DNA from: an uncultured Bacillota bacterium
GTDB lineage: Bacteria; Bacillota; DTU025; MWDF01
DNA length: 64,000 nt
Direction: 5' to 3'
NCBI GenBank assembly: GCA_963823655.1
Contig: CAWGMK010000010.1
Span: 128,001-192,000, forward strand
In this document: positions 4,561 to 29,716 of the stretch, in pieces
Layout of the letters: each line of letters opens with the position of its first letter
Position numbering within the stretch: position 1 is the stretch's first letter
Made by a program: the position numbers and the translations under genes
The notes under the pieces: model-generated
Told to the model about the DNA's origin: nothing
Seen by the model: the letters and a program-made list of their open reading frames with translations, nothing else
Database searches by the model: none

Positions 4561-4598
4561 GGCAAGGGGGGCTTTTATGAGCCCCCCTTGCCCTATTT
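4561..4598. terminator. intrinsic terminator between convergent genes
   Basis: GGCAAGGGGGGCT...AGCCCCCCTTGCC hairpin followed by a T-rich tail. Confidence 0.8.
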
Positions 4599-4630
4599 TG
4601 GCCGATTTGGCCTGGAGCAGCCTGGAAAGC

Positions 4631-6007
4631 TTAGAGCAATACCAGCGACATTAACGCAATAGAGAGGATCGAAACGATGCCGACGAACAGAGTGCCGCCG
4701 GTCTGAAGCTTATATGCCTGGTTGACGTCCATGTCGGAGAATTGTGATACGACCCAGAAGTAGGAGTCGTTGGCATGGGACACAACCATGGAGCCGGCGC
4801 CGATCGCAATTGTAACGAGGGCCCTTGCCATATTGCTGTCGAAGCCCAAAGACGGCATCAGCGGAGCAAGTATGGCGGATGTTGTTATCAAAGCGACCGT
4901 TGAAGAGCCCTGGGCGGTCTTGATTGCGGCCGCGATGATAAAGGGCAGGAAAATCCCCAAGTTGTATTTCGACAGAATGTCGCCAAGCACCCCGCCTATT
5001 CCTGTAGCCTGGAGCACCGCGCCGAACGAACCGCCTGCCGCGGTGATTACAAGTATTACCGCCGAATCCTTGATGGCCTCACTCACCCAGTCACCGTATA
5101 CTTGCTTGTTGATCTTGGTGGCGAGCGTCATGGCAAGGAAAACGCCGAGGATGAGGGCGAAGTTGGGGTTGCCTATGAACACCAAAATCGTCTTCAGGGT
5201 GCCTGTGCCGAAGGGGTTGGTATTGAAGTTCGCTACAGATCTTAGGGCTATTAGCAATATTGGGATGAGGATGGGCATGAAAGCTGCGAACGTGCCGGGA
5301 AGCCTTCCGAACTTCTTCAGCATCTCCTCATAGCTCATGCTTGCCTTGGGCTTGATGTCGATCTTGGAACCTACCTTCAGGGCATACAGCCAGCCTGCAA
5401 GAGTTGCGGGAATCGACGCGACAAGGCCGAGAAGGATGACCAGCCCGAGGTCGGCTCCGAGGTTGCCGGCTGCGGCGATGGGCCCCGGCGTAGGCGGCAC
5501 CATCGTATGGGTTGCGTAAAGCCCCATAGATAGCGCAGTCCCCATGACCGCAAGTGAAATACCCCCGGACTGGGCCAGCGCCCTGTTCAGGGACGATAGG
5601 ATTACGAATCCGCTGTCGCAGAAGACGGGAATTGATACGACATAACCGGAGAAGGCCATCGCAAGCGGCGAGTTCTTCTTGCCGACGAGCTTGAGCATGG
5701 TGCGGGCCATGACAACTGCAGCTCCGGTCTTCTCAAGTATGGTCCCTATGATTGTGCCAGCGACGATTACGATGCCGATGTTCGTCAGCGTGCTGCCGAA
5801 CCCGTTCGCAATCGTCTCAATAATTCCCGGAGTGGTCTTACCGTCGACTGTCTTCGGGATAAGAGGGGGATTTGTTGCCAGCAGGCCCACGAAAAGGGCA
5901 GCAAGAAGCAGTACGAGGAAAGCATTCATCTGTACTTTGCCTGTCATGATGACTATGAAAACTATCGCGATGACGAGCAGCAGAATTAACCAGGTGCCAC
6001 TGAACAC
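4631..6007 (-). CDS. GntP family gluconate/sugar-acid permease
   Basis: SIPVFCDSGFV, HTMVPPTPGP, KTAQGSSTVA and SHANDSYFW motifs. Confidence 0.93.
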   Translation of the reverse strand: MFSGTWLILLLVIAIVFIVIMTGKVQMNAFLVLLLAALFVGLLATNPPLIPKTVDGKTTPGIIETIANGFGSTLTNIGIVIVAGTIIGTILEKTGAAVVMARTMLKLVGKKNSPLAMAFSGYVVSIPVFCDSGFVILSSLNRALAQSGGISLAVMGTALSMGLYATHTMVPPTPGPIAAAGNLGADLGLVILLGLVASIPATLAGWLYALKVGSKIDIKPKASMSYEEMLKKFGRLPGTFAAFMPILIPILLIALRSVANFNTNPFGTGTLKTILVFIGNPNFALILGVFLAMTLATKINKQVYGDWVSEAIKDSAVILVITAAGGSFGAVLQATGIGGVLGDILSKYNLGIFLPFIIAAAIKTAQGSSTVALITTSAILAPLMPSLGFDSNMARALVTIAIGAGSMVVSHANDSYFWVVSQFSDMDVNQAYKLQTGGTLFVGIVSILSIALMSLVLL

Positions 6008-11922: not shown

Positions 11923-11973
11923 CTTAGCTAGCATTACCGCATGTTAGAATACTGCTTGGAACGGGGTGTTTAC

Positions 11974-12720
11974 ATGGACTGTGCACTTATCGAGGCTCAG
12001 ATAGTCGAATGGCTAGGATCCAAGGCGGCGGAAGCCGGCAGCAAGGGCTTCGTCTTCGGCCTTTCCGGTGGAATTGATTCCGCGCTCGTCGCAGCCCTTG
12101 CCGCGAAGGCGATGAAGGGCAGCTGCCTCGGGCTAATTATGCCCTGCGATTCGCATCCTTTAGATGCAGAACATGCCGTGCTCGTTGCTGAGACATTCGG
12201 CATAAGCACCAAAATCGTAGACCTATCAAGCGCGCATAAAAGCCTTATGTCGGAGTTCAGAAGAGGCGCCGAAAAGGAGCCGTCCAGGCTTGCCGCGGCA
12301 AACCTGAAGCCCAGGCTGAGGATGGCCAGCCTCTACTTCTACGCCAATGAGCTCAACTATATGGTCCTTGGCACCGGCAACAGGAGCGAGTGGTATGTGG
12401 GCTACAGCACCAAGTACGGGGACGGCGGCGTAGATGTGCAGCCGATCATAGGCCTTCTCAAAACACAGGTGGCCGAACTTTCCAGGCACCTGGGAGTGCC
12501 GGAGGAGATAGTCACCAAGACACCCACGGCAGGGCTCTGGCAGGGCCAGACCGACGAGGGGGAGATGGGCTTCACATATGCCCAGCTGGACAGATACATC
12601 GCGACAGGTGTTGCCGACGATGAGGTTAAGGCGAAGATCGACAGGATGCACAGGGGTTCAAGGCACAAGTTCGCCCTGGCTCCGTCCCCGATAGAGCCCG
12701 AAAAGGGCATAATGCTTTAA
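11974..12720 (+). CDS. nadE: NH3-dependent NAD+ synthetase
   Basis: GLSGGIDS, NLKPRLRM, GYSTKYGDG and PTAGLWQGQTDE motifs. Confidence 0.96.
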   Translation: MDCALIEAQIVEWLGSKAAEAGSKGFVFGLSGGIDSALVAALAAKAMKGSCLGLIMPCDSHPLDAEHAVLVAETFGISTKIVDLSSAHKSLMSEFRRGAEKEPSRLAAANLKPRLRMASLYFYANELNYMVLGTGNRSEWYVGYSTKYGDGGVDVQPIIGLLKTQVAELSRHLGVPEEIVTKTPTAGLWQGQTDEGEMGFTYAQLDRYIATGVADDEVKAKIDRMHRGSRHKFALAPSPIEPEKGIML

Positions 12721-12730
12721 AGCAGGAGCT

Positions 12731-13303
12731 GTGTGCGAAAGTTGGCTCAAAATCCTGTGGAGGAAATTCATATCCGGCTTTGGCGTCTACGACCTTGTGG
12801 TCATAGGCTTCATAGCAGCGCTGGGGATTGCCGCCAAAAGCGTCATAGGCCCCCTTGCCCATCTTGTGACTGTGCCCATCGGCATACCCGGCGGTGCGCT
12901 TGCAGGTGGCTTCTATATGCTCTGGCTGGTGCTGGCAAGGGCTTTTACGGCAAAGAGAGGGGCGGCCCTTCTGGCGGCGCTCGTACAGGCGATAATAGTG
13001 CTTATAACAGGCTCGTTCGGCTCCCACGGGGCGCTGACCCTGCTGACCTATACTCTGCCCGGCTTGGCGTGCGAGCTAGCCATGCTCCCGTACAGCCCGG
13101 ATGGCGACGGCAAGCTGTTGTGGTGCAGCCTTGGCGGGATCGCGGCGAACCTTACTGGCGTTGTTGCGTCCAACATAGCGTTTTTCAGGCTGCCTGCCCT
13201 GGCTCTGGCGCTCATGGCGGCAACGGCCGCGTTCTCGGGTGCGGCGGGGGGAGCCGCGGCATACGCGGCAACGACAAAGCTCAAGGCCGTTCTGGGTAGA
13301 TGA
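12731..13303 (+). CDS. ECF transporter S (substrate-specific) component
   Basis: About 190 aa, very hydrophobic; GIPGGALAGGFYMLW and GSFGSHG segments; in an operon with two ATPases and EcfT. Confidence 0.8.
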   Translation: MCESWLKILWRKFISGFGVYDLVVIGFIAALGIAAKSVIGPLAHLVTVPIGIPGGALAGGFYMLWLVLARAFTAKRGAALLAALVQAIIVLITGSFGSHGALTLLTYTLPGLACELAMLPYSPDGDGKLLWCSLGGIAANLTGVVASNIAFFRLPALALALMAATAAFSGAAGGAAAYAATTKLKAVLGR

Positions 13304-13319
13304 TGACTGGAGGAATAAG

Positions 13320-13835
13320 ATGAAAAGCAAGGACAGGCTGGCAATAGGCATCATAGTCCTCTTCGGGCTGGTTATGGTGGTACTCGGCGCCGTGAATTCC
13401 TGCGCAACCGACCAGAAGCTTGAAGGGGCGCTGGAAATATATCTTAACGGGGAGAAAGTCGCCACATTGAGCGCGGCTGACCTGTCAGCCCTGAAAAGCT
13501 CCACATTCAAGGCCGTTATAAGAAGCTCTAGCGAGGGCACGAGCGAGGCCGAGTTCACCGGCGTGCTCGTCTACGATATCGCGGCAAAGGCGGTTCCGAG
13601 CATCGCGGACGGCTTCAAGGCGATAATCGTAAAGGCGGAGGACGGCTACCAGACGGTGTTGAGCAAGGATGAGGCGCTGCTTAAGGACAATGCTTACATC
13701 TGCTTTCTCATGAACGGGGCCCCTATAAAAGGCAAGCTGCAGAAGGGCCACGGACCTTTGCGCCTGATCATCCGCAATGACGAGTTTGGCCAGCGCTGGG
13801 TGAAGTACGTAAACAGGATCGAGATAAGAAAGTGA
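13320..13835 (+). CDS. membrane-anchored molybdopterin-binding (sulfite-oxidase-like) domain protein
   Basis: N-terminal TM helix; FTGV.V, AEDGYQT, MNGAP and GPLRLII...RWVKYVNRIEI motifs. Confidence 0.75.
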   Translation: MKSKDRLAIGIIVLFGLVMVVLGAVNSCATDQKLEGALEIYLNGEKVATLSAADLSALKSSTFKAVIRSSSEGTSEAEFTGVLVYDIAAKAVPSIADGFKAIIVKAEDGYQTVLSKDEALLKDNAYICFLMNGAPIKGKLQKGHGPLRLIIRNDEFGQRWVKYVNRIEIRK

Positions 13836-14518
13836 GCGTGCTGGCGCTGCACGGCATCAGCTTTCGCTACAAGTCGGCTAAAAAGCCGATATTGTGCGGG
13901 CTTGATCTCGTTTTGGAGCGCGGCGAGTGCGTAATGGTCTCAGGGCCGTCAGGGGGCGGAAAAAGCACGCTATGCCTTATAGCTTCCACCATAATCCCCA
14001 CAAGGATTGCAGGCGAGCTTGCCGGAAGCGCCGAGCTGATGGGCGAAAGCACAGCCAAGCTGGGCCCGGCGGGGGCCTCGCATCACCTGGCGTTCGTAAT
14101 GCAAGAACCTGAATACTCTATGATAATGCCCACTGTGGAAGAGGAGCTGGCCTTCGGCCTGGAGAGCAGGAGCTGGCCTGCCGGCGAGATCTCAGCTCGC
14201 GTTGAGGAGCTCATCGAGGCCTTCGGGCTTGGTTCGCTTCTGGGAAGGAATCCCGTGAAGCTCTCCGGCGGGGAGAAGCAGGCAGTGGCAATCGCCGCGG
14301 CAATCGCCCCGAAGCCCACCCTTCTTATCCTAGATGAGGCCTTCTCCGGCCTGGACAACGAGAGATACGCCCTTGCCCAGGTACAGATTAAGAAGCTGAA
14401 GGATGAAGGCTCGGCAATGCTTCTGGTTGAACACACCGCCAATGGCAGAAGCGTTCATTCATGGGTGGACAGGCAGCTGCTGCTTGAAGGCGGATTGCTG
14501 GCGGAGGTGGCGCGGTGA
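13832..14518 (+). CDS. ecfA: ECF transporter ATP-binding protein
   Basis: GPSGGGKST, QEPE, LSGGEKQ and LILDE motifs. Confidence 0.9.
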   Translation: MSVLALHGISFRYKSAKKPILCGLDLVLERGECVMVSGPSGGGKSTLCLIASTIIPTRIAGELAGSAELMGESTAKLGPAGASHHLAFVMQEPEYSMIMPTVEEELAFGLESRSWPAGEISARVEELIEAFGLGSLLGRNPVKLSGGEKQAVAIAAAIAPKPTLLILDEAFSGLDNERYALAQVQIKKLKDEGSAMLLVEHTANGRSVHSWVDRQLLLEGGLLAEVAR

Positions 14519-15193
14519 AGGAAGTAAGATTCGATGCCGTGCATTACTCCTATCCTCCCGACAGGAACGGGGAGCCTGGCAGGAAGGTGTTCTCAGGGCT
14601 CACCATTGAGCTTGAGCCGGGAAATGTGTACGTAATGACCGGGCCAAATGGCAGCGGGAAGAGCACCTTGGCAAGGCTTATGGCAGGCATAATTCATCCG
14701 GATGAGGGCAAGGTTTCAATCGGCGGCAAGGATGTTTTGGCATTGAGCCTTCCTGAGGTAGGCAGGTCGGTAGGGCTCGTGATGCAGGATCCCTCAAGGC
14801 AGCTTATCATGCAGAAGCCCGCGGATGAGATAGCATTCGGGCTAGTCCACAACGGAACTGGGAGGGAAGAGGCCCTTAAGATCGCCGAGAAGGTGCTTGA
14901 AGAGTACTGCTTGACGCGGGGCGTCAGGGACGTTTACCCAGAGGCTGTCTAAGGGCGAGCAGGTTAGGCTGGCGATGGCATCTGTCGCGGCGCTCAATCC
15001 CGACTGGCTGGTACTGGATGAGTCTTTCGCAAGCCTAGATTCCGGCACAAGCAGCATAATCATGGCCAAGCTCAGGCAGATGGTGCAAAAAGGAGCCGGC
15101 GCGCTGGTCATATCCCACTCCGGGCTTATCTTAGAAGAGCTTAAGGGCATAAGGATAGATATGCAGAAGGGGGGCGCGGCGCTTGTGGGCTGA
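14515..15193 (+). CDS. ecfA: ECF transporter ATP-binding protein (frameshift near 14940)
   Basis: GPNGSGKST and QDPSRQ in the first ORF; LSKGEQ and LVLDE in another frame. Confidence 0.85.
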
Positions 15194-15914
15194 TATCGAC
15201 CCCAGGCCGAAGCTTTTTGCGGCCCTGTGCCTGTCCTCCATGGCCCTGATGGCAAGGCAGGCGGGCTCCTCGATCCTGCTTCTGCTGCTTAGCATCGCTG
15301 CATTCATGGCCTTCGGCGTGGATCTGCGAAGGCCGGCAAAGGCTCTGGTGCGCCTCGCCCCTGTGTTGATGACAGTTGCCCTTATCCAGATACTGCTCAT
15401 CAAAAGCGGGGATGTGCTGGTGAGCGCAGGCGTCATCCGGATCGTCACGACAGGCGGGCTGAGAGCTGCGCTGTTCATGGCCGTAAGAGTGGGAGTCATC
15501 GCAAGTTGCGGCTTTATCATAGGAAGCATAGGCTTTTCGGATTTTCTTCTGGCGATGAAGGCGATAAGGGTGCCTTACGAGCTGTCATTCATTTCAGCGA
15601 TGGGTGCGAAGCTTCTTCCACTTCTGGCTGAGCAGATGAAGGATTCTCTGGTATCGGCACAGCTCAGAGGCGCAAATTTATCTAAGATGGGGCTTATGGC
15701 CAGGTTCAGGCTTTACACCGATGTGCTGATGCCCGCCACAGTGACTTCGATAATGAGGGCTGAGCAGATATCCTGGTCGCTGGAGCTGAAAGGTTTCGAT
15801 CCGGGCAAGCCCCGCACATACTGGCGCAGGCTTGACATGTCTACGGGGGATTGGTTGGTCTTTCCCGCCTGCCTGATTGCCATTGGCGCGTTTCTGATTT
15901 TGAATTATGCCTGA
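15183..15914 (+). CDS. ecfT: ECF transporter transmembrane component T
   Basis: IDPRPKL start; AQLRG and LELKGF conserved positions. Confidence 0.9.
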   Translation: MWADIDPRPKLFAALCLSSMALMARQAGSSILLLLLSIAAFMAFGVDLRRPAKALVRLAPVLMTVALIQILLIKSGDVLVSAGVIRIVTTGGLRAALFMAVRVGVIASCGFIIGSIGFSDFLLAMKAIRVPYELSFISAMGAKLLPLLAEQMKDSLVSAQLRGANLSKMGLMARFRLYTDVLMPATVTSIMRAEQISWSLELKGFDPGKPRTYWRRLDMSTGDWLVFPACLIAIGAFLILNYA

Positions 15915-15926
15915 TAGGAGGCCATC

Positions 15927-16439
15927 ATGAAAGTTTTTGCCGTATCCGGTCTTCATGGCACAGGGAAGACCACCGTTGTGGAAAACTTGGTCAGGGAGCT
16001 CTCTTCAAGAGGGCTAAGAGTCGGCACGGTCAAGGATATACATTATGAGGGCTTCTCTATGGACAAGGAGGGCACCAATACCTGGAGGCACATGCAAGCG
16101 GGAGCCTGCATGGTGGCGGCCCGCGGGCTCAGGGAGACCGATTTTCTTATACCCGCCAGATTGGCCATGGCCGACATCGTCCGGAAGTTCGACACCGACG
16201 TTGTCATAATCGAGGGGGGACATGAGGAGGATTACCCGAGGATTACATGTGCCACGATGCCTGAGGACGCCGATTTGAGAATAGATGCACGTACCTTCGC
16301 AATATCGGGTTGCCTTGCCGAATGCATGGCGGAATATCGAGGTTTCAGGGTGTTCAATTGCCTGATCGAGGCAGGGCTACTTGCCGACCTGGCGCTTGCC
16401 TCATCGCTTGAGCTTGGCACTAAGGGAAGCGAAGTATGA
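15927..16439 (+). CDS. mobB: molybdopterin-guanine dinucleotide biosynthesis protein B
   Basis: GLHGTGKTT, VGTVKDIH, DKEGTNTWRHMQAGA and IIEG motifs. Confidence 0.88.
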   Translation: MKVFAVSGLHGTGKTTVVENLVRELSSRGLRVGTVKDIHYEGFSMDKEGTNTWRHMQAGACMVAARGLRETDFLIPARLAMADIVRKFDTDVVIIEGGHEEDYPRITCATMPEDADLRIDARTFAISGCLAECMAEYRGFRVFNCLIEAGLLADLALASSLELGTKGSEV

Positions 16440-17270
16440 GGGCCGACGCGATTGATTTGAAGATTGCGCCTCTGGCCGGGGCTGTCGTTAGCGTGATGGC
16501 CGAAGCGGATGGCAGGATATCCAGCGAGGAGGCGCTTTCGGTACTTCCCGGCTTCGAAGGGGCTTTCAGGCTCAATTCGAGGAAAGGCACCTGCTTTGAG
16601 ATTAGGTTTGCCGGTTCGCCGTCAATCTTCGCCAAGTTCCTGGAAAATGAGCAGAAGGCGGAGAATGAGAGAGTTTGCGCAAGGCTCCTTAACGATTGCG
16701 GCATCAGCTGCCCGGCGGTGCTGGCAAGATCCGGCAAAGCGATCGCAAGGCGCTTCATAGAGGGGAATACGGCATCGGACGAGCTGGATACGATACAGTC
16801 CTGGGGCGATTGCCCGGCTGCGCTAAAACTGTGCGGCAAGATAGGCGGCATGTTGCGCCAGGTGCATGGGATAAGCACTGAATGAAGCAGCGTCGTTGGC
16901 ACTTAACGATTTGAATTTGAAGAACTTCATTGTATCCCGAAGAGGAGAGCTGAGCCTCATAGACCTCGAGGATGCGGGCGTTGGGCAGGCAGCGGTGGAC
17001 CTGGGGGCGCTTATAGTGCACATCCTGACCCACAGGCCGAGCTTCTCGGAGCTCTCCTGGCAGATGGCCGAGGCCGCCTTCGATGGTTATTGCGGCCCTA
17101 CAGGCCCCGATTTCGGCCTCGAGGAGTGGAAGGAAGGCCTGGATACTGCAATCAGGGATGCATCCATTAGGAGGAAAGACCCGACTCTTGTAGAACAAAT
17201 GCCGGGGATACTTGCGCGCGCATCAGAATGGAGACTGCCAAAAAGCGAAGGGAGCCGGTTGACGCGATGA
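16436..17270 (+). CDS. aminoglycoside-phosphotransferase/kinase-like protein (frameshift near 16880)
   Basis: AKF...E, LRQVHG, NDLNLKNF and LIDLED kinase motifs split across two frames. Confidence 0.7.
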
Positions 17271-17812
17271 AGGCCAAGGAGCTTACGCTCGGTGCTCTTT
17301 TCACGGCCCTGATGATAGCGGGGGCTTACATCGCCTTGCCGACCCCTCTCCTGCCTGTGACATTTCAGCCGTTTTTCAGCGTGCTTGCAGGCTCGATATT
17401 AGGGCCCAAGCTAGGTAGCATGTCTGTTGCGGCATATATTGCGATCGGCCTTGCCGGAGTACCCGTATTCGCGGGCTTCACAGGAGGCATCGGCAAAGTG
17501 CTTTCGCCTTCATTCGGTTTCATACTGGGCTTTTTCGGAGCGGCCTTAATCACGGGCGCAATGCTCAATAAAAAGGAGGCCACTTTTAGAAGTGTGGCGC
17601 TGGCTTCCACCGCCGGCATCCTCGCAATATACCTGATAGGTGTGCCATACATGTATGGCGTTTTCACGCTTGTGTCCGGCAAGGATGTGACTTTTACCGC
17701 GGTCGCGATTTCTATGGTGCCGTTCTTCATTAAGGATCTGGTACTTTCATTGGCTGCAGCTGGCCTTGCGGTTAGGCTCATACCTGTCGCCAGGATGGCA
17801 GTCAGGTCCTGA
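17267..17812 (+). CDS. bioY: biotin ECF S component
   Basis: PVTFQ, GLAGVPVFAG and SPSFGFILGF motifs. Confidence 0.92.
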   Translation: MKAKELTLGALFTALMIAGAYIALPTPLLPVTFQPFFSVLAGSILGPKLGSMSVAAYIAIGLAGVPVFAGFTGGIGKVLSPSFGFILGFFGAALITGAMLNKKEATFRSVALASTAGILAIYLIGVPYMYGVFTLVSGKDVTFTAVAISMVPFFIKDLVLSLAAAGLAVRLIPVARMAVRS

Positions 17813-18513: not shown

Positions 18514-19245
18514 CTATCTACCAGAAAGCTTTAATATCGCCTCTTCCATTTTCAAAGCATCATACCACGACTGCCTCAAGATTACCGTACCGTCCTTGCC
18601 TATTAGATAGGCGATGTTCGGCGCGGGCCCGTAAGTGAACCAGACGGGGTTGTCGAACTCATCTACAAGAACCGGTATGCGGATATGGGACTCCTCGATG
18701 GTCTTTTTGGCAAGTGAGACCCTTTGATCGTAACTTTGCGGCTGAAGAACCGGGGCGCCATTCTCGTCCTTGCTGAAAGCAGCCGGCCACTCCTTGGTCG
18801 AATATGGGCTTACAGAGCCTACAGGATGGGCCTCTATTGTGTAGATGATCAGGAAGTGTGCAATGTCCTTGAACTTCCCGTGAAGCTTGTCTGTGGCAGC
18901 CAACCGCTGCCTGAAGGGCGGTCAGGTGAAAGAGCCTATGATCAGGACGACAGGCTTTTCGGAAAGCAGGTCCGATAATGTGTGGCTTACACCCTCAGTG
19001 TCCTTCAAAGTGAAATCGACCGCCATTTGAGCCTGTGCGATGCCGACCCTGGAAAATGACGCCTGCCCCGGAAGCGGCAAGCCCCTTAGGAGCACCCCGG
19101 GCAATGAAGGCGAAATGCCTGCTTCTTTGCCAATCAAAAGGCCGGCAAAAGCGGGACCTGGCAGAAGAAGGCATACGGCAGAGGCCAGCGCCGCTACAAG
19201 CAGCAATCGGAATATCCACATTGAAGAAACCCTTCGCGCTTTCAT
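18514..19245 (-). CDS. iodothyronine-deiodinase-like thioredoxin-fold selenoprotein (Sec at UGA 18922-18924)
   Basis: Two ORFs join in frame: DFTLKD...KPVVLIIGSFT-UGA-PPFRQR...FLIIYTIEAHP...LVDEFDN...YGPAPN. Hydrophobic N-terminus; GGAGG RBS before ATG at 19245. Confidence 0.88.
18895..18911 (-). promoter_or_regulatory. bacterial SECIS-like hairpin
   Basis: mRNA GGCAGC-GGUUG-GCUGCC, a perfect 6-bp stem beginning 10 nt 3' of the in-frame UGA. Confidence 0.7.
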
Positions 19246-19309
19246 ATTGACCCCTCCCGTTTGATTATCTTTGAGTAGCATAATTCTTTACTTGACTGCA
19301 AATGCCCCG

Positions 19310-20582
19310 CTAAAGTCCTAATGAGGCCCTCATCTTGCCGAAAAGAGCCGTGTTATCGTAGTAGCCTTGGAAAAGACCTTCGCCTGGCCCCCGGGCGCTT
19401 ACGACTACGGGCACTGCCGTGTGCGAGCTGGTCCCCCAGGAGATGTTGGCCCTTGCCGATACCATCCTGCCGATCTCCCTTGCCGGATCGGAGGACGCGG
19501 CGATTAGCTCCATGCCGTCGCCCTCAGTATGGCTCAGATGAGCCTGCGAAGACAGAATTGAATATAGGCTGCTCCAGTCCGAGGCGGCATCGGCTGCCAT
19601 TTGGGATGCGCTGGAGCGCACGCTCTTCAGATATGGAATTCCGATCTTGTAGCCGGCCGCGGCCCCCAAGGAGAGCCCGCCGGTCTCGTGGTCGGCTGCG
19701 ACTATCACCAAAGTGTCGCCACGGGTACGCGCATAGTCAAGGCAAACGGCAACAGCTTCGTCGGTTGACAGCATCTCCGCTAATGCGCCTGCCGCGTCGT
19801 TATCGTGCGACATCCGGTCTACCGCACCCGATTCCACAAGCAACATGAACGGCTTATCGGATTCTTCCAGCAGGGCAAGCCCCTCCTTGAGCATGTCAGT
19901 GAGCCTGGCCTCATCCTTCTGCCTGTCAATTTCCGGGGTGAGCTCCTCGTCCGCGAGAAGGCAGATGGCGGGTAAGCTGGCGGAAGCCCTTAAAGAGGGG
20001 AGGCTGTAGTAAAATGCGGGTCCCTTCCTTTGAGCAGGCTCGCCTTTATCCGCATTGTCCGATGCCGGCTTTATATAGGACCTGCCGCCGCCGATCATTA
20101 AGTCTATGCCCGATGAGAGCAGCTGGGTCGATATGTTCTTCTTGGCAGTGCGGTCGAACTCGCTTGCGTACATGGCGGCGCACGTTGCGTCGTACAATGC
20201 CGATGTCGTAATTATGCCGGTATTCATGCCTTTGGCCTCTGCCAGCTCCATGATGCTGGTAAGCTCGTCCAGCTCCTTGTCGTAACCCAAGACGCCGTTG
20301 TAGGTCTTCTTTCCGCAGAACATGGCGGTGGCCGAGGCGGCAGAGTCGGTGATGTCCAAATCGACGCTAGACGTCAGCATAAGCCCAATAAAAGGCATGT
20401 TGTTCATGACAAGCCCTTTGTCCAAAGCAAGCTCCCCGAGCTGCCTGTGGGAAGGTCCCATGCCGTCCACTATGAAGATGATGAGATTTCCTGGCGGGGG
20501 CGGCCGAGTAAACTGCACCAGAAAGGATCATAAGGCCCGCCAGCAACGTCAGGAATATGCGGAAAAGGGTACTTTTGCGCAT
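19310..20582 (-). CDS. phoA: alkaline phosphatase (signal peptide in a different frame; frameshift near 20490)
   Basis: IVDGMG, ITDSAASATA, VESGAVDRMSHDND, ADHETGG and HTAVPV motifs. Confidence 0.9.
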
Positions 20583-22922: not shown

Positions 22923-22994
22923 ATTTTCTCCCCCTTTAGGTCCGATTCAATTGCAATTACATTATCACACAATGTATGATTCCGAGTAAGAAAA

Positions 22995-23097
22995 CCGCGC
23001 TCCGAGCCGGAGGGCCTAAAGCGAGAATGGCCAAGGATCTCCGGCCGATAGGGCCAGGGCGGAAACACCCTGACCTCCCTTTTGGAAAGGATTGCGG
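22995..23097 (+). ncRNA. Moco/tungsten-cofactor riboswitch (MOCO_RNA_motif-like)
   Basis: CTCCGAG...GGCCTAAA...GGAAAC...CCTCCC..TGGAAAGGA signature; closing stem CCGCGCTCC/GGATTGCGG; upstream of molybdopterin-binding-domain genes. Confidence 0.82.
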
Positions 23098-23162
23098 GGG
23101 GCTTGCATTTATTTGCCGTGCCTTCCGATTGGGGGCACGGCATTTGTTTTGGAGGTGCCAGG

Positions 23163-24131
23163 ATGAAACCGGCGATTAGAATCAGGGCTATTGTGCTGGT
23201 CTGCCTTTCTTTAGCGCTTATGGCATTAGCCTTATCGGCCCAGGCCGCAGAGAAGGTGCAGATTAAGCTTACCGACAGGTTGGGCACATCCCAGATCGTA
23301 AATGTTTCGGCCCTGCCGCAGCTGACATACAAGGCGGCATACAAGCGTTCATCAGGGACGATAGTCGGCCCGTTCACTTACACAGGACCCTCCATGATGT
23401 CCATACTGGCACTTATGGGCGGCGTCCATAAAGGCGATGCCGTGCAGCTCATTTCCGACGATGGCTACAGGATGAGCCTTACTTTCGAGCAGTTGTCGGG
23501 GGAAGTCACTGTATACGACGAGAAGGGTGAAGCCCTTGACGAATTCAAGCGCCCGGTGATGATGCTTGCCCTTTCATCAGATAATCCCGCATTTGCTGCC
23601 GGCAACCCCAGAGCCATATACGCTGGTCCTGAGACGCCGCTGACCGATGGACACACGTGGGTCAAGAGCATAGTAGAAATCAAGGTCATCCCGCTGGTCA
23701 AAGAGTGGGTGCTGGAGCTGAAAGGCGCAGTACAGGCCAGGATGGACAGGTCCACATTCGAAAGCCTTGCCACTTGCCCCGTTTCCCCGCACCCGGGATC
23801 GGAGTTCGGAACAGAAGCATCCGCATATGCGGGCACACCGCTTTGGACTCTTGTGTCCGTGGTGGACAATGTCGAGGCCGAGAACGCGCATTACACATTC
23901 GACAGAAAGCTCGCCAAAGAGGGCTATATCGTCAGGGTCATATCGAAAGACGGCACCTACCTGGACATCCGCTCCCAGGATATGGCGGATGAGCCCGGTA
24001 TATTCATGGCTTTCACCAAAGGTGGAGCCCTGCTCTCTGAAGAAGAGGGGCCCCTTATGCTAACAGGGCCCAAGGTCGGCAAACCCCTCAAGAACATAGT
24101 GGCGATAGAGCTTATAGGCTTGAATAAATAG
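23163..24131 (+). CDS. secreted protein with two molybdopterin-binding-like domains
   Basis: Signal peptide (AQA); repeated YTG/YAG...SDDGY/SKDGT...WVKSIVEI/LKNIVAIEL units; GGAGG RBS. Confidence 0.7.
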   Translation: MKPAIRIRAIVLVCLSLALMALALSAQAAEKVQIKLTDRLGTSQIVNVSALPQLTYKAAYKRSSGTIVGPFTYTGPSMMSILALMGGVHKGDAVQLISDDGYRMSLTFEQLSGEVTVYDEKGEALDEFKRPVMMLALSSDNPAFAAGNPRAIYAGPETPLTDGHTWVKSIVEIKVIPLVKEWVLELKGAVQARMDRSTFESLATCPVSPHPGSEFGTEASAYAGTPLWTLVSVVDNVEAENAHYTFDRKLAKEGYIVRVISKDGTYLDIRSQDMADEPGIFMAFTKGGALLSEEEGPLMLTGPKVGKPLKNIVAIELIGLNK

Positions 24132-24142: not shown

Positions 24143-24661
24143 ATGAAAAGAAAGTTCCTGGTATCAGTCATTATCCTTACGGTTATGTCCGTATCCCTGG
24201 CCGTTATGGCGGCGGGTCCGGCAGTTAAGCTCGTAAAAGGCGACGCGGCTCCGGTAGTAGCGGAGCTCGAGAAGCTCGAAAAGGTTGAGGGTCTGGCCCT
24301 GTACAAGAACTCCAAGGGGGTAATCTCCGGTCCCTTCAAAATCAAGGGAGTGAAGCTGTCAGAGGCGCTCAAGCTTGTGGGCGGAATGACGGCTGACGAG
24401 AAGCTGGTCATCACGTCCTCCGACGGCTATTTGACCGAGCTCACCTTCGCCCAGGCCAATGGCGAATTGGCGGTCACCAAGGCAGATGGATCGCCCGTCG
24501 AAGAGAAGCTCTCTGTAGTGCCCGTGCTGATCACCTGGTCGGAGCCCGCCATGGAGAAGGACCTGCCAAGGCTCGCCTTCATAACACAGGCAGGTCACAT
24601 CACCGAGAGCAAGTACTGGGCGCGCAATGTAGTAGAGATAAAAGTGGTTCCGGCGAAATAG
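24143..24661 (+). CDS. secreted single-domain paralog of the preceding gene
   Basis: Signal peptide; GPFKIKGVKL...GGM...SSDGY..ELTFAQ...WARNVVEIKVVP parallels domain 1 of 23163..24131. Confidence 0.7.
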   Translation: MKRKFLVSVIILTVMSVSLAVMAAGPAVKLVKGDAAPVVAELEKLEKVEGLALYKNSKGVISGPFKIKGVKLSEALKLVGGMTADEKLVITSSDGYLTELTFAQANGELAVTKADGSPVEEKLSVVPVLITWSEPAMEKDLPRLAFITQAGHITESKYWARNVVEIKVVPAK

Positions 24662-24825: not shown

Positions 24826-26589
24826 ATGGCAGATTCCCTCCGAATTTCGATAATTCAGATGGGGGCATATGACATACTAAGTCCGCACCATGCGGACAAT
24901 GAGATGTTCTACATGCTTGAGATGGAGAAGGACTTCAAACCGGACATCATCCTTCTTCCCGAGTGCGCCTGGCCGGGCTATTTCCTCTCCGGCTGGGACT
25001 ACTCCATGCAGGAGAAATCGGATGATATTAGAGCCAGGCTCGCCCAGACGGCAAGGAGGCTCGACTGCTTCATAGTTGCCGGACTGCCGGAGCCGGATAA
25101 GAGCGGGCCCACAGCCCAGATGCTCCCCTTCAACGAGGGCTGGATGCAGCCAGAGCCATCGCCCCTGTTCAATTCCGCGATCGCGTGGAACAAGCAGGGC
25201 AAGGTGGTCGCTTCGGGCCATAAGATCAATTTGTGGCACTTCGATTCACGTTGGTTCATGAAGGGTGAATCGCCGGCCTCCTTCCGCACGAAATGGGGAA
25301 AAGTAGGCCTTATAGTCTGCGCGGACGCGAGGGTCCCCGGCATAGTGGAGACGCTTACAGAGGACGGCTGCCGCCTGGTATTGAACTGCACCAACTGGGT
25401 AACGTCCGGACCAGACAGGTCGAGGCTCACAAACCCCCAGGCGGACTACCTGATAAGAGTCAGGGCGGTCGAGAACAACGTATGGATCGCTTCGTCCAAC
25501 AAGGTGGGCCTGGAAGACGGCCTCATAGCCTTCTGCGGGGGCTCGCAGCTCGTATCCCCTGAAGGGGTTACGGTAAGCAGGGCTTCGTCCGACAGGATAG
25601 AGACCATAAGGGCGGAGATACCTCTCGATGAGCAGGGCAGGATAGCTCTGCCGGAGCCCAAGATCGAAAGGATCAGCAACGCGGCATACTACGACGCAGC
25701 CGTTACAGGCCTTTCCGTACAGCCTGCCGCTGAGCCGACGGCCGAAACTCCCCTGGCGTCCGGAGATAGTGAAGACGGAGCGGCCAGCGGCGATAAAGGC
25801 CTGAAGATTCAAGGTTATTGCCCGAGGCCCTCATATCCCTACATGGCGGTGGTCCAGCAGTCTCCGGAATCGGCAGGGCAGCCCGGCACAGGGCTGATTG
25901 CCAAGGCAGCGGTGAAAAGGCTGGCTGCTAAGATAGATGCGCTCGATGCGGACATTGTGGTGTTCTCCGGGACTTTCGCGGCCCTTCCGGGCCCGGATCC
26001 CCAGGCCGGGGCGCTATTAAATGAGCCCGGCATAAGGAAACGCCTGCTGGTAATACCGTACGGAAGGTGCGCCAAGTGCGGAAACCCTATTGGAGGGGCG
26101 GACGTCTGCTTTGATGGCAAGTCCCTTCAGCAATACGGCGCTTTGAGCGTCAGGGAGGCCACCAGAGGCTGCCCCAGGTGCGGCAACGGGGATTCCGTGG
26201 CGCTGGCACCTGTAGTGCAGACTCCTTTCGGCCCGCTGGGGCTCGTCCTCGGCAGGGAGGGGCACGAGCACAGGTTGATAGCGAACCTCGCCGGCATGGG
26301 AGTGGGCATGTTCGCATGGATAACATCGGGCCTGGTACATGAGCATGAGATTGTGGCTCGGGCAAGGGCGATGGAAAGCAGGGTCTGGGTGGCCACTGCC
26401 AACCCGGCGCGCATAGTAGGGAAAGCGGACGGCCCGGAGGCACATTCTGGGCTCAGCCTCATTGCAGAGCCCGATGGAAGGGTAGCTTCATGCGCATTCC
26501 CGGACGAAGAGCAGATCATATGCTCCTACTGCGATTTGTGCCTGACTGAAAGGGCCGAGGCCGTTCCAGGCACGCTTGCAACAAGATAG
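24826..26589 (+). CDS. carbon-nitrogen hydrolase (nitrilase superfamily), two domains
   Basis: LPEC, HKINLW and IVCAD give the E-K-C triad; RVRAVEN; degenerate second domain with RARAMESR. Confidence 0.88.
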   Translation: MADSLRISIIQMGAYDILSPHHADNEMFYMLEMEKDFKPDIILLPECAWPGYFLSGWDYSMQEKSDDIRARLAQTARRLDCFIVAGLPEPDKSGPTAQMLPFNEGWMQPEPSPLFNSAIAWNKQGKVVASGHKINLWHFDSRWFMKGESPASFRTKWGKVGLIVCADARVPGIVETLTEDGCRLVLNCTNWVTSGPDRSRLTNPQADYLIRVRAVENNVWIASSNKVGLEDGLIAFCGGSQLVSPEGVTVSRASSDRIETIRAEIPLDEQGRIALPEPKIERISNAAYYDAAVTGLSVQPAAEPTAETPLASGDSEDGAASGDKGLKIQGYCPRPSYPYMAVVQQSPESAGQPGTGLIAKAAVKRLAAKIDALDADIVVFSGTFAALPGPDPQAGALLNEPGIRKRLLVIPYGRCAKCGNPIGGADVCFDGKSLQQYGALSVREATRGCPRCGNGDSVALAPVVQTPFGPLGLVLGREGHEHRLIANLAGMGVGMFAWITSGLVHEHEIVARARAMESRVWVATANPARIVGKADGPEAHSGLSLIAEPDGRVASCAFPDEEQIICSYCDLCLTERAEAVPGTLATR

Positions 26590-26612
26590 TCCCGAAAAAC
26601 GGAGGTCCGGCG

Positions 26613-27539
26613 ATGAGAAGGTCTTCGATAATTGCACTTATTGTCCTTTTGGCGATGATGGCAGTTCAGTCCACAGGATGCACAGCGGGGTATAAGCCGA
26701 AGGTTGTAGTGCTGAACGGCGTCACGGGCCTGGGGCTGGCGAAGCTGTTGGGGAGCCCGGATTACGAGGTCGAGGTTGGCAAATCGGCGGACGTGGCGGT
26801 TGCAAGGCTCACTTCCAAGACCGCTGACGCTGCGGCCCTTCCCGTATCAACTGCCGCGCTGCTTCGAAGCAAAGGCACTGCCATAAGATTGGCCGCTATC
26901 ACCAACTATGGCTCCCTATACATCCTTACTTCCGGCAAAAACGTGGATATACCCTCCATAGCGGCATCCTTCCTCGGGGTTCCCGGCAGGGGCACGATGC
27001 CCGACGTAACGATGAGCATGCTGCTTTCGGAGTACAAAGTACAAGGCACCGGAGTGCAGTACTATTCCTCGCCAGCCGAGCTTGCCAACCTTCTTGCAGC
27101 CGGCAGGGTGGAGGCGGCGCTTCTTCCCGAGCCGTGGGTCAGCCAGGTACTTTCGGCAAACAGCTCGCTTAAAATTGCCGTAGATATGCAGAAGGCTTTC
27201 AAGGACGCCTATGGCTTCGACTATCCGCTAAGCTGCGTCGTTGTGAGCGAAAGCTTCGCAACCGACAGGCCGGCAGAGCTCAAGAAACTGCTTGAGGACA
27301 TCAAGGCGAGCGTCGCTTGGGTCGTGTCGAACCCGGCGAAGGCCGCACTGGTCGCCGAGGAGAGGCTCTCGATGGAGAAAGGCGCGACCGAAGCTGCGAT
27401 CCCGCGCTGCAATTTCGAATACCTGGATGGTCTTAAAGCCAGGGAAGCCGCCCTTGCCTTCTACAGTAAGGTGCTTTCCGTATCGCCTGCCATGATCGGA
27501 GGGAAGCTCCCCGATGAGGCGTTCTACATCTCGAAATAG
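26613..27539 (+). CDS. ABC transporter substrate-binding lipoprotein (NitT/TauT/NMT1-like)
   Basis: Lipobox STGC; AALLPEPW motif; C-terminal GGKLPDEAFY. Confidence 0.88.
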   Translation: MRRSSIIALIVLLAMMAVQSTGCTAGYKPKVVVLNGVTGLGLAKLLGSPDYEVEVGKSADVAVARLTSKTADAAALPVSTAALLRSKGTAIRLAAITNYGSLYILTSGKNVDIPSIAASFLGVPGRGTMPDVTMSMLLSEYKVQGTGVQYYSSPAELANLLAAGRVEAALLPEPWVSQVLSANSSLKIAVDMQKAFKDAYGFDYPLSCVVVSESFATDRPAELKKLLEDIKASVAWVVSNPAKAALVAEERLSMEKGATEAAIPRCNFEYLDGLKAREAALAFYSKVLSVSPAMIGGKLPDEAFYISK

Positions 27540-28287
27540 CTTTTATACGGCGGCGGGGCTAGCCCTGTTGATTGCCATATGGTGGGCAGGATCGCTTATC
27601 ATCGGCAGCGTCATCCTGCTGCCCACGCCTGCTGAGGCATGGCTTGCTCTGCTGAGGATTTCTGCAAAGCCGGGCTTCCTTTCGGATCTGGGGGCAACGG
27701 GCCTTCGCGTCCTGATCGCATTCGCCCTATCATTCGCCCTGGGGCTGCTTGCAGGCGTTGCGTCCGGCATGTCCGGTGCGGCAAAAGGGATGCTTTCGCC
27801 GTTATTGGCTGCCCTTCGGACGATCCCCTTCATATCACTCTCTGTGCTTTCGATAATCTGGTTCCCGTCAGGCACCGTGCCCATCTTCGTGGCGTTTTTA
27901 ATGGCATTTCCGATCGTCGCATCTGATGTATCGGAGGGGCTGGGCTCAGTCGATGCGGGGCTTATCGAGATGTCCCGAGTTTTCAAGGTGAGCCGCACAA
28001 AGATGCTAAGGAGACTTTACCTTCCGTCCATAGCCCCGTATCTTGTGTCCGCAAGCGCGCAGTCGCTGGGCATGTCATGGAAGATCGTAGTCTCCGCCGA
28101 AGTGCTCTCAATACCTGCAAAAGGAATCGGAGCGCGGATGGACGCGGCGCGAGCCTTCCTTGAGACTCCAGAGCTTTTCGCCTGGACTTTGCTGCTCGTA
28201 ATCCTGGGCTTTCTGGCCGACCTCGCCCTGGGGGCAATGATGGCAAGGGCTTTCAGGAGGAAGGAGGGAAAGCTTTGGCAGGAGTGA
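27514..28287 (+). CDS. ABC transporter permease (NitT/TauT family)
   Basis: LPTP, LIEMSRVF, YLPSIAPY and WKIVVSAE motifs. Confidence 0.9.
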   Translation: MRRSTSRNSFYTAAGLALLIAIWWAGSLIIGSVILLPTPAEAWLALLRISAKPGFLSDLGATGLRVLIAFALSFALGLLAGVASGMSGAAKGMLSPLLAALRTIPFISLSVLSIIWFPSGTVPIFVAFLMAFPIVASDVSEGLGSVDAGLIEMSRVFKVSRTKMLRRLYLPSIAPYLVSASAQSLGMSWKIVVSAEVLSIPAKGIGARMDAARAFLETPELFAWTLLLVILGFLADLALGAMMARAFRRKEGKLWQE

Positions 28288-29006
28288 TCATAAAGGGCCT
28301 ACGGAAGGCCTTTGACGGGGTGGACGTCTTCTCGGGCGTGGGGCTTGAGCTTACAGAGGGGAAAATAACAGCGATACTCGGGCCTTCCGGAAGGGGCAAG
28401 ACCACGCTGCTGAGGATAATCTGCGGCCTTGATAAGCAGACGGACGGGCAAGTGCAGATGCCTGAAGGCGCCACATGTTCCGTTGCCTTCCAGGAGCCGA
28501 GGCTAATCCCTTGGCTTACGATCGGAGAGAACATGTCCTACTGCCTTGGGGATGCAGGCATGGCCGCGGCAAGCTCCTGGCTTGCAGAGCTGGGGCTTGG
28601 GGATTTCGCCGACAGATTCCCGTGCAGCATGTCCGGCGGTGAAAGGCAGAGGGCGAACCTCGCAAGGGCGCTTGCGGCAAAATCATCACTGCTGCTTCTC
28701 GATGAACCTTTTAACTCAATCGGGCTTGGCATGAAAGCAGAGCTGCTGCCAAGGCTGAGGGCGAAGTTCGCAAACGAGGGCAGGACGGTCGCAATGGTCA
28801 CTCACAGCCCGGTAGATGTGGCGCTGATGGCCGACAGGTTCTATCTAATGGACGGGGACGGAATGGGCGCGCAGGGCCCGTTCGGGCTTAATATCGAAGG
28901 TGTGGAAAGAGACCTCGCAGATGAGGCCATGGGACAAGAGGTCCACAGGTTGATGCTGCTTATGGCGTCTTTGGGGACGGGGGTGCAAAAGGCGGATGGG
29001 CGATAA
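28275..29006 (+). CDS. ABC transporter ATP-binding protein
   Basis: GPSGRGKTT, FQEPRLIPW, MSGGERQR and LLDEPF motifs. Confidence 0.92.
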   Translation: MAGVIIKGLRKAFDGVDVFSGVGLELTEGKITAILGPSGRGKTTLLRIICGLDKQTDGQVQMPEGATCSVAFQEPRLIPWLTIGENMSYCLGDAGMAAASSWLAELGLGDFADRFPCSMSGGERQRANLARALAAKSSLLLLDEPFNSIGLGMKAELLPRLRAKFANEGRTVAMVTHSPVDVALMADRFYLMDGDGMGAQGPFGLNIEGVERDLADEAMGQEVHRLMLLMASLGTGVQKADGR

Positions 29007-29716
29007 TCCGGAGAGGTTCGCAAGGGAAGAGCTCCTGGTAGGAAAAGAGGGCATCGAGAAGCTGGCCTCAAGCCACGTCGCGGTCTTCGGCATCGGTGGC
29101 GTTGGTTCGTTCTGCGCTGAGGCCCTGGTAAGAGCAGGTATAGGAGAGATTACATTCGTAGATTCGGATACTGTGCAGGAGAGCAATTCCAACAGGCAGC
29201 TTGTCGCGCTTGTCAGCACTCTGGGCCGCGCGAAAGTCGATGTGATGGCAGAAAGGGCGCTGGACATCAACCCTGAACCTGAAAGTCCATGCGATAAAGG
29301 CGTGGTTCGGGCCCGATAACGCGGAGCAGATGCTCTCATCCGGGTTCGATTACGTGGCGGATGCGATAGACAGCGTGGAATCCAAGCTGGAACTCATCCG
29401 GAAGTGCCATGAAAAGGGGATTATGATAGCCTCCTCGATGGGCGCCGGCAACAAGCTCGACGCGACCGGCTTCAAAATCGCGGACATCTCCTCCACACAT
29501 ACTTGCCCGCTTGCAAAGGCCATAAGGACGAGGCTCAAGCGCGAGGGGATAACAAACGGGATAACAGTCGTATTCTCGGAGACTGAGCCTGTAAGGAGGG
29601 CCCCAGGGCCTCCTGGCAGCATATCTTTCGTGCCGCCGGTCGCAGGCCTGCTTTTGGCCCAGGTCATAATTAGGGGGCTGCTGGAGAGGGAGGCCGTGCC
29701 TGAGGGTTCAATTTAA
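28996..29716 (+). CDS. tcdA: tRNA threonylcarbamoyladenosine dehydratase (ThiF family; frameshifted near 29280-29320)
   Basis: GIGGVGS and ESNSNRQ in the first ORF; DAIDS, SSMGAGNK, TCPLAK and GSISFVP in the second. Confidence 0.88.

Follow-up and report, generated by a model that had tools for sequence, protein, structure and literature searches.

The molybdenum cofactor (Moco) is generally treated as a cofactor that each prokaryote must make for itself, and we know of no bacterial importer or kinase described for a metal-dithiolene pterin. The vitamins thiamine, riboflavin, pyridoxal and nicotinamide riboside are salvaged by dephosphorylation outside the cell, import, and re-phosphorylation inside, and transporters of the energy-coupling factor (ECF) type normally operate without an extracytoplasmic binding protein. 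Here we describe an operon located in a 64,000-nt stretch of contig CAWGMK010000010.1 (hereafter the window) from the genome of an uncultured Bacillota bacterium, designated G000 (97.1% complete, 13 contigs, 2.31 Mb), in which a predicted ECF transporter is encoded together with a protein of the sulfite oxidase (SUOX) fold, a MobB-family protein, and a small kinase. On the basis of comparative genomics, from which all inferences on its role are drawn, we propose with a probability of about 65% that this operon encodes a salvage importer for the tungsten/molybdenum pyranopterin (molybdopterin, MPT) cofactor, acting through capture, trimming, ECF import, re-phosphorylation, and hand-off to MobB.

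Several hundred organisms have been reported to carry 'orphan' molybdoproteins without a complete Moco pathway and mostly without a known Mo transporter, for which the open part of that study proposes unknown biosynthetic components or metal-independent enzymes, and not import (Peng 2018, PMC6147048). Community studies assume cross-feeding of Moco, no transporter being named in the accessible part of the text (PMC10116762), while a 2013 survey of riboswitch regulons covers coenzyme uptake for B12, thiamin, riboflavin, queuosine, and folate, with Moco not listed in its accessible sections (PMC3766115). How pterins cross membranes is called unknown in a 2026 review of pterin signalling. No described bacterial importer of Moco or the tungsten cofactor (Tuco), and no link of either to ECF transporters, was found in the open full-text literature, although subscription papers and supplementary tables (Regulski 2008, Rodionov-group regulon papers, Peng 2018) might list such genes. 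The closest solved relative of the SUOX-fold protein considered here is PruR, presented in the accessible sections of its description as a periplasmic Cys-less SUOX fold in which the pterin ring is sandwiched by Y104 and W160 and hydrogen-bonded by N102; the Trp of its PW motif, placed on a shortened hairpin, occupies the position of the Mo-ligating cysteine, which is Cys185 in chicken sulfite oxidase and Cys102 in YedY (PMC11194511).

The seven genes that an earlier note, made from the letters of the window alone, had listed at 12731-17270 of the forward strand are all present where it placed them. They encode the S component, the SUOX-fold protein OxM, the ATPases EcfA and EcfA', the coupling component EcfT, MobB, and the kinase (Table 1), and adjacent genes either overlap by 4-11 nt or are separated by gaps of 10-16 nt. 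Two ABC ATPases and a CbiQ-family T component thus share the operon with the S component; ECF_ATPase models were the top NCBIfam matches for the ATPases, yet the scores were under the equivalog cut-offs. A second EcfT-like gene is located elsewhere in the G000 genome (C6:283973-284590), and therefore the ECF module of the operon is considered to be dedicated. A housekeeping ECF module serving many S components was ruled out, given this second gene and the co-variation of the module with the S component and OxM across lineages.

To follow the cassette in other genomes, contigs were searched with a profile of OxM orthologues, which yielded 42 loci, and the genes present at each were counted by tblastn with the window proteins and distant orthologues. 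All loci belong to Bacillota and almost all to metagenome-assembled genomes (MAGs), the cultured exception being Clostridium ragsdalei P11; they are distributed over uncultured Clostridia, Halanaerobiales, Syntrophomonadaceae, Christensenellales, Natronincolaceae, Dethiobacteria, Tepidanaerobacteraceae, and Eubacteriaceae. OxM and EcfA were detected at all 42 loci, the S component at 40, EcfT at 38, and MobB at 33, followed by a type I phosphodiesterase/nucleotide pyrophosphatase (PF01663) at 24, further OxM-like proteins (OxL) at 23, and a match to the C-terminus of the kinase at 19. The 42 loci, from many lineages of Bacillota, share the S-OxM-EcfA-EcfA'-EcfT arrangement, and the linkage to mobB, on which the earlier interpretation depended, holds as well: where the sequence extends for 600 nt or more past EcfT, MobB is encoded directly 3' of EcfT in 31 of 33 loci (L075 and L079 being the exceptions), and the open reading frame (ORF) after MobB was APH/RIO-like in 11 of the 13 tested. 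The PF01663 enzyme carries a lipoprotein signal, and lipoboxes were present in both OxL examples read.

A profile of the S family brought up other arrangements of the same genes. In G007 and G010 (L101, L102), the S component, MobB, and the kinase form a trio on their own with overlapping stop and start codons, while the cassette of G012, G015, and G010 consists of a Moco riboswitch, a secreted calcineurin-like phosphoesterase, a 353-aa OxM-like protein, an S-OxM fusion, a fused EcfA-EcfA', and EcfT. The fusion protein of G012 (358 aa) matches both PF09819 (59.8 bits) and PF00174 (33.6 bits), and because the S component and an OxM-like domain are joined in one polypeptide, they are likely to act together. 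The S component of G013, a genome without MoaC, MoeA, and MoaE, adjoins XdhC, a MocA-like nucleotidyltransferase, and a xanthine-dehydrogenase-type enzyme; in detail (L100, G013:C1:7000-24000), it lies between the XdhC/MocA-like pair and the three subunits of the enzyme, and a secreted GDPD phosphodiesterase is encoded nearby.

It had been suggested to check whether the genome lacks the moa genes while encoding molybdenum or tungsten enzymes, and this is what was found in G000. No match was obtained there for Mob_synth_C (the C-terminal domain of MoaA), MoaC, MoaE, MoeA_N, or the xanthine-dehydrogenase domain MoCoBD, yet the genome contains eight AFOR_N matches, corresponding to about six loci of aldehyde ferredoxin oxidoreductase (AOR), and a 653-aa enzyme of the type using bis-MGD (bis-molybdopterin guanine dinucleotide), with Fe4S4, Molybdopterin, and Molydop_binding domains and best models for formate dehydrogenase and DMSO reductase. 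This pattern recurs in the six further genomes of the genus, which are 77-98% complete: MoaC, MoeA, and MoaE were found in none of them, whereas AOR and a PF00384 enzyme are encoded in all six. Enzymes of the late steps are retained: G000 has a MobA-like gene, and G001 and G028 have MocA-like genes. The cassette occurs in 36 further genomes; MoaC and MoeA were each found in 20 of them, and 14 lack MoaC, MoeA, and MoaE altogether; ten of these 14 encode AOR, and 13 encode AOR and/or a PF00384 enzyme. For three of the 14, the records are named in long-read style and the contigs measure 145 kb to 1.3 Mb. In a sample of 41 relatives taken without bias, the S-family gene was present in 12 of the 13 AOR-positive genomes negative for MoaC and MoeA, these genomes being interrelated. 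The PF00384 enzymes of seven genomes without MoaC, MoaE, and MoeA (G042, G043, G046, G051, G055, G070, G071) contain a single in-frame TGA and are probably selenocysteine-containing and formate-dehydrogenase-like.

Metal uptake genes were also sought. No molybdate/tungstate binding protein of the ModA/WtpA/TupA type was recognised in G000, G028, G053, or G057 with PF13531 and PF12849. The sole PF12849 match in G000 is PstS, encoded beside PstC; its PF13531 matches are weak (at most 48.8 bits) and were not each annotated, so that a divergent ModA/WtpA may be among them. The best PF13531 match in the genus is PhnS-like, and G028, G053, and G057 have no match to either family.

A further line of evidence is provided by the Moco/Tuco riboswitch (RF01055), whose co-occurrence with this S-component family had been named as another check. 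Of the 28 loci outside the genus that are uncut at the 5' end, 20 have it directly upstream of the cassette and in the same orientation, and it was also found upstream of all three fusion-type cassettes examined (L099, L103, L104). Tandem aptamers precede the cassette at two loci (L053, 530-884; L070, 2737-3017) and would give a steeper response to the ligand. In the window, the aptamer lies 5.2 kb downstream of the ECF operon and precedes the genes of two secreted OxM-like proteins, RsA and RsB (Table 1); G001 and G002 likewise have an RF01055 aptamer at a distance of a few kb past the operon. In the alignment, the window aptamer shows a deletion of the hairpin that lies at about model positions 61-75, and inspection showed that all 29 cassette-linked aptamers lack this P3 element, while the aptamer before moeA-moaC in G036 has it. 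Aptamers without P3 have been associated with the tungsten cofactor, as stated in the accessible part of the original description (Regulski 2008, PMC2408646). In every ViennaRNA fold of the window leader the terminator hairpin forms, and no clear anti-terminator was seen.

The AlphaFold2 (AF2) model of OxM (predicted local distance difference test, pLDDT, 94.5) has a single N-terminal helix at residues 3-29, and the structure found first by Foldseek was PruR (7kom, TMt 0.78). SorA, chicken sulfite oxidase, and YedY came next, with a probability of 1.00 and TMq of about 0.6 for these SUOX enzymes; profile searches matched 7kom (E 5e-8) and SorA (E 3e-6). The observation that OxM carries VIRSSSEG where these enzymes have the Mo-ligating Cys was borne out, since S69 of R68-S69-S70 aligns with the Trp of the PruR PW motif in the profile alignment to 7kom. 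OxM thus has no conserved Mo-ligating cysteine; the Cys is replaced in all nine orthologues aligned, among which R68-S69-S70 is invariant, and the AF2 model shows these residues capping a long hairpin (60-83). D108, Y110, and W160 are invariant across 11 OxM paralogues and orthologues. The D108-G-Y110 segment aligns with the Asn-x-Tyr of PruR in the 7kom alignment, taken as N102 and Y104 in the numbering of the PruR paper, while W160 corresponds to the Trp of the pterin sandwich by motif position, the printed alignment ending at residue 159. The Tyr and probably the Trp of the PruR-type triad are kept and the Asn is replaced by Asp108, and because of this match and the invariance of W160, OxM is predicted to bind a pterin. 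Judging from secondary structure alone, its cleft may be less truncated than that of PruR. OxM has no twin-arginine motif and no domain beyond PF00174 in its 171 aa. A structure-based prediction of the complex of the S component with OxM scored 0.23 against a mark of 0.32 and weighs neither way on binding.

A homologue search with OxM returned only 16 close relatives, none informatively named. The profile search outlined a family that counts 2082 representatives at E<=1e-3; the number falls to 425 at E<=1e-10 and to 80 at E<=1e-30. Most are of about 170 aa. Four proteins (P0017, P0020, P0046, P0093) consist of 5-10 tandem OxM-like domains, reaching 1556 aa, and may be high-capacity surface binders. 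RsA itself had no Pfam match, while its orthologue in G012 matches PF00174 over residues 216-350; no Pfam match was obtained for RsB. Another paralogue is encoded elsewhere in G000 (C13:1-5278, L033), where an AOR gene in pieces and a DDE transposase precede the genes of a DOMON-domain protein and of an Oxidored_molyb protein of 230 aa. The latter (PF00174, 84.6 bits; 4586-5278) has an RK-type signal sequence and retains a Cys ('YCVEGW') that aligns in the S69 column of OxM; together with its DOMON partner (C13:4025-5278), it is possibly an extracytoplasmic SUOX enzyme in a genome unable to make Moco.

The S component is predicted to have six long helices (AF2 model, pLDDT 91.4). Its best Foldseek match was 5EDL (TMq 0.76, 17% identity), which we take to be Bacillus subtilis YkoE of the thiamine/hydroxymethylpyrimidine (HMP)-related YkoEDC system, followed by ThiT, BioY, and RibU, and ECF complexes were matched as well; the sole metal-type structure was the cobalt transporter CbiMQO (5x3x), at rank 38 with TMq 0.47. 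A profile of the S family found no PDB chain at E<=10. PF09819 was matched by 27 of 31 members of the family, and the window protein is 41-48% identical to orthologues from other families and distant lineages. By sequence, the S component forms a distinct, well-conserved subfamily within the YkoE-like PF09819 superfamily, for which the role of a pterin-cofactor translocator is proposed. Clustering with a family of known substrate, which would have spoken against such a role, was not observed: the relationship of the S component to YkoE is only remote, and a scan of the window and of 48 related loci at gathering thresholds revealed no thiamine pyrophosphate (TPP) riboswitch (RF00059). On these grounds, a thiamine/HMP transporter was ruled out.

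The MobB of the operon, with the P-loop GTGKTT, is the sole MobB match in the G000 genome. Long forms of the protein in other genomes have a Cys-rich FeS-like C-terminal domain, and we infer that the cassette MobB is the acceptor of the imported cofactor. Among solved structures, the kinase family is nearest to Bud32, RIO, and APH kinases (E about 1e-7). Six residues (K66, E77, D157, N159, N162, D175) are invariant in an alignment of 15 members, so that the full catalytic set of protein-kinase-like enzymes is present, namely the Lys, the Glu, the Asp-x-Asn...Asn loop, and the metal-binding Asp; the window copy, though frameshifted, has the motifs LNDLNLKNF and IDLED. No characterised orthologue of the kinase was found. 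At L066, a full ThiF-family gene is also located 3' of MobB.

Two reading-frame shifts, absent from the earlier note, interrupt the operon in the G000 assembly, one in EcfA' near 14915 and the other in the kinase within 16875-16882. The first piece of EcfA' contains the Walker A motif, and the second contains LSKGEQ and Walker B. Five genomes of the genus have each of these genes in one uninterrupted frame. When the window was compared over 12700-17300 with Logan contigs of four metagenome runs (three studies, 95-99% alike), exactly two indels were revealed: one base was missing from these contigs at 14915 (both covering runs) and one at 16879 (all four runs). Moreover, about four of the six AOR loci of G000 are also split or truncated (C5:15966, C7:18625-19228, C12:157995, C13:261-862), with full-length AOR in G001 and G002, which suggests a high indel rate in this assembly. 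Since the extra bases are missing from the related contigs and AOR loci are split too, the two operon frameshifts are most likely assembly indels, and the population carries an intact system. Genuine pseudogenisation, which could be a strain-specific decay of the operon, was judged less likely.

The operon is preceded by nadE and followed by bioY, and both linkages are confined to the genus: bioY adjoins the operon in all five genus loci and in none of the 36 loci outside it, so BioY is probably a passenger. The genus lacks the PF01663 phosphodiesterase of the other cassettes. An alkaline phosphatase family gene (19310-20518, reverse strand; PF00245, 218.6 bits) located 1.5 kb beyond the operon could be a local trimming enzyme. 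Two adjacent small ORFs at 18514-19281 on the reverse strand, of which the first is thioredoxin-fold-like (T4_deiodinase, 22.9 bits, below the cut-off) and the second has a signal anchor, may be one gene split by another frameshift. Downstream of RsA and RsB, the forward strand at 24826-29716 encodes a CN_hydrolase of 587 aa, the NMT1/THI5-like binding protein, permease, and ATPase of an ABC transporter, and a short piece of a ThiF-family protein.

Table 1. Features of the ECF operon and its surroundings in the window.
Feature	Position	Strand	Matches and remarks
nadE	11941-12720	+	directly 5' of the operon
S component (ECF)	12731-13303	+	PF09819, 42.2 bits (cut-off 25.2)
OxM (Oxidored_molyb-like, 171 aa)	ORF 13239-13835, likely start ATG 13320	+	PF00174, 43.4 bits (cut-off 24)
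EcfA ATPase	13832-14518	+	ABC_tran, 70.8 bits; best NCBIfam model ECF_ATPase_1, E 2.6e-36, under equivalog cut-off
EcfA' ATPase	14515-15193	+	two frames in assembly, 14515-14952 and 14915-15193
EcfT, transmembrane coupling component	15183-15914	+	PF02361 CbiQ, 70.3 bits
MobB-family P-loop protein	15927-16439	+	PF03205, 81.1 bits; TIGR00176, 80.9 bits (cut-off 76.2)
Small APH/RIO/Bud32-like kinase	16436-17270	+	two frames, 16436-16885 and 16875-17270; APH, 25.1 bits on C-terminal piece
BioY, biotin S component	17228-17812	+	PF02632, 117.9 bits
Moco/Tuco riboswitch aptamer without P3 hairpin	22988-23108	+	RF01055, 64.9 bits (gathering 36), model positions 1-135
Terminator-like 12-bp GC-rich hairpin and U-rich tract (presumed expression platform)	23115-23150	+	from sequence
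RsA, secreted (signal peptide), OxM-like domain and probably a second	23163-24131	+	aligns with OxM; DGY and W positions kept
RsB, secreted single OxM-like domain	24143-24661	+	alignment keeps G81, D108, Y110, P146, W160

Taken together, the gene linkage, the riboswitch, and the gene content support the earlier inference that a surface cofactor-capture protein feeds an ECF importer of a pterin cofactor and that the kinase may re-phosphorylate the cargo. Outside the cell, OxM, RsA and RsB under their presumed riboswitch control, and the OxL lipoproteins of relatives would grip cofactor that is free or has been released, using the Tyr and Trp predicted to stack on the pterin, and a secreted nucleotide pyrophosphatase or phosphoesterase, present in many lineages, would remove dinucleotide or phosphate groups. 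The trimmed cofactor would be moved inwards by the YkoE-like S component powered by the dedicated EcfA-EcfA'-EcfT, and trapped by the small kinase through re-phosphorylation, as in other vitamin salvage routes. MobB and the retained late enzymes of the MobA/MocA/XdhC type would then take over the labile cofactor and pass it to apo-AOR and the bis-MGD-type enzyme. Because no MoeA match and no recognisable molybdate/tungstate binding protein were found in the genus, the cargo is most likely already metal-loaded. The lack of P3 in this class of riboswitch and the abundance of AOR favour tungsten as its metal. A fuller version of this proposal, namely a complete dedicated bacterial pathway that treats the cofactor as an exchangeable vitamin, with SUOX-fold capture, phosphoesterase trimming, import of metal-loaded dephospho-cofactor, the kinase, MobB, and a Tuco-type riboswitch reporting the intracellular pool, is more tentative, and we would put its chances at somewhat less than even.

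Several observations weigh against a cofactor importer. Free cofactor is chemically very labile, and an extracellular pool is uncertain even in anoxic habitats. The proposal provides no route from metal-loaded cofactor to W-bis-MPT without MoeA, and the nearest relative of OxM with a solved structure, PruR, has small pterins other than Moco as its ligands. In this genus, no riboswitch is located at the ECF operon itself, which follows nadE, and EcfA' and the kinase are out of frame in the G000 assembly. The system is not confined to auxotrophs, as 18 of the 36 other cassette genomes carry both MoaC and MoeA. Individual genomes also deviate: G063, without MoaC, MoeA, and MoaE and with a locus lacking MobB (L075), shows neither AOR nor PF00384, while no S-family match was obtained in G008 despite an AOR fragment and the absence of MoaC and MoeA. 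In addition, most of the genomes are MAGs, those designated G041-G076 have no known completeness, and moa genes cluster, so that one lost contig could remove several of them. Nevertheless, all seven genomes of the genus lack MoaC, MoaE, and MoeA matches, which argues against missing contigs as the explanation within the genus.

Alternative explanations differ from the proposed salvage of a metal-loaded cofactor mainly in the cargo. The transporter could import a metal-free or precursor pterin (dephospho-MPT, MPT, or cyclic pyranopterin monophosphate, cPMP), the metal being inserted inside by an unrecognised route, possibly by MobB or the MobB-FeS protein. Secreted phosphoesterases combined with a cytoplasmic kinase would fit the import of a dephosphorylated pterin, the Cys-rich FeS-like domain of long MobB forms has no assigned role, and the 18 of 36 cassette genomes with MoeA could metallate what they import; however, the seven genus genomes and 14 others without MoeA and MoaE could not finish cPMP or metal-free MPT by known enzymes, and with no ModA/WtpA/TupA-type protein recognised in G000, G028, G053, and G057, no known entry for the metal exists in these, which makes this explanation unlikely. 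The pterin could also be one unrelated to Moco (neopterin, monapterin, biopterin, or a folate precursor), bound and imported or merely sensed, as by PruR in Proteobacteria. That the nearest solved relatives of OxM are PruR structures binding neopterin or monapterin, with probable pterin-stacking residues common to both, speaks for this, but a Moco/Tuco riboswitch is upstream in 20 of 28 loci and no tetrahydrofolate (THF) or other pterin-related RNA was found in the loci scanned. The cassette seldom lacks MobB, the S component of G013 adjoins XdhC, MocA, and xanthine dehydrogenase, and gene content is tied to loss of the Moco pathway. Given, moreover, the RSS on a long modelled hairpin (residues 60-83) instead of a PW motif and the absence of a DcpA-type partner, we consider a non-Moco pterin quite improbable.

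Uptake of tungstate or molybdate by an ECF-type transporter, with the OxM-like proteins as oxyanion binders, would agree with the lack of ModA/WtpA or TupA family matches in several cassette genomes and with the fact that Moco riboswitches commonly control Mo/W transporters, as far as the accessible part of the source goes (PMC2408646). Nevertheless, the metal alone would be useless to genomes without MoaC, MoaE, and MoeA, and the S component has a vitamin-type fold, 5EDL and ThiT being closest and 5x3x only 38th with TMq 0.47. OxM retains probable pterin-stacking residues, and the kinase and nucleotide pyrophosphatase would have no role in oxyanion uptake; we thus regard it as very unlikely. 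Finally, the OxM-like proteins could be extracytoplasmic oxidoreductases with a Ser ligand, to which the ECF-MobB system supplies or exports the cofactor. The SUOX fold is normally catalytic, OxM without a twin-arginine motif would have to be loaded with cofactor outside the cell, and a Cys-bearing paralogue with a DOMON partner is encoded at C13:4025-5278. However, ECF transporters are to our knowledge importers only, auxotrophic genomes hold no cofactor to export, and OxM has just 171 aa with no further domain and a replaced Cys in nine of nine orthologues aligned, leaving such enzymes the slightest of chances.

If the fuller pathway set out above is true, it would explain the genomes with 'orphan' molybdoenzymes that have neither Moco synthesis nor metal uptake, and cofactor cross-feeding would be a structuring force in anaerobic communities. 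The question of Moco import becomes directly testable through a defined gene set comprising the S component, SUOX-fold binders, phosphoesterase, kinase, MobB, and riboswitch, which also offers markers of W/Mo-cofactor auxotrophy in metagenomes. A possible physiological role would be assigned to MobB, the kinase would be the first candidate pterin-cofactor kinase, and the transporter would be the first ECF system appearing to use extracytoplasmic binding proteins. Such knowledge could aid the cultivation of uncultured anaerobes from digesters and sediments.

Compared with known systems, the operon resembles vitamin salvage routes in combining secreted phosphoesterases, an ECF S component, and a cytoplasmic kinase, and differs from them in that its cargo would be a metal-dithiolene pterin. 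With the YkoE-type S components (PF09819, 5EDL) it shares the six-helix fold, a PF09819 score above gathering, and its own EcfA/EcfA'/EcfT module; however, it is associated with a Moco/Tuco riboswitch instead of a TPP riboswitch, and its partners are MobB, the kinase, SUOX-fold binders, and secreted phosphoesterases. The MobB protein passes the equivalog cut-off of the bis-MGD branch (E. coli MobB, TIGR00176) and has the P-loop, but unlike the E. coli type it is encoded inside a transporter operon, in some genomes without MoaC, MoaE, and MoeA matches, and has the C-terminal FeS-like domain in most lineages. OxM has the fold of the Moco-binding domain of the SUOX enzymes (SorA, chicken sulfite oxidase, YedY/MsrP) and scores above the PF00174 cut-off, whereas it has no Mo-ligating Cys and no dimerisation or haem domain and is only 171 aa long including the anchor.

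Like PruR (7kom, 7kos/7kou, 7kp2, 7rkb), OxM is a small Cys-less SUOX-fold protein located outside the cytoplasmic membrane and possessing the Tyr and probably the Trp, but the secreted PruR, in the available part of its description, signals to the c-di-GMP enzyme DcpA, and has a truncated cleft that takes small pterins and the PW motif at the Cys position (PMC11194511). No such partner (a GGDEF/EAL gene) was found among the cassette neighbours. In contrast to PruR, OxM is membrane-anchored, has RSS on a long hairpin and Asp in place of the Asn, occurs in Bacillota, and has its gene linked with those of MobB and an ECF transporter and with a Moco riboswitch. We therefore rate the system as a candidate vitamin-type ECF importer with a new class of cargo, extracytoplasmic binding proteins, and a dedicated kinase/MobB branch.

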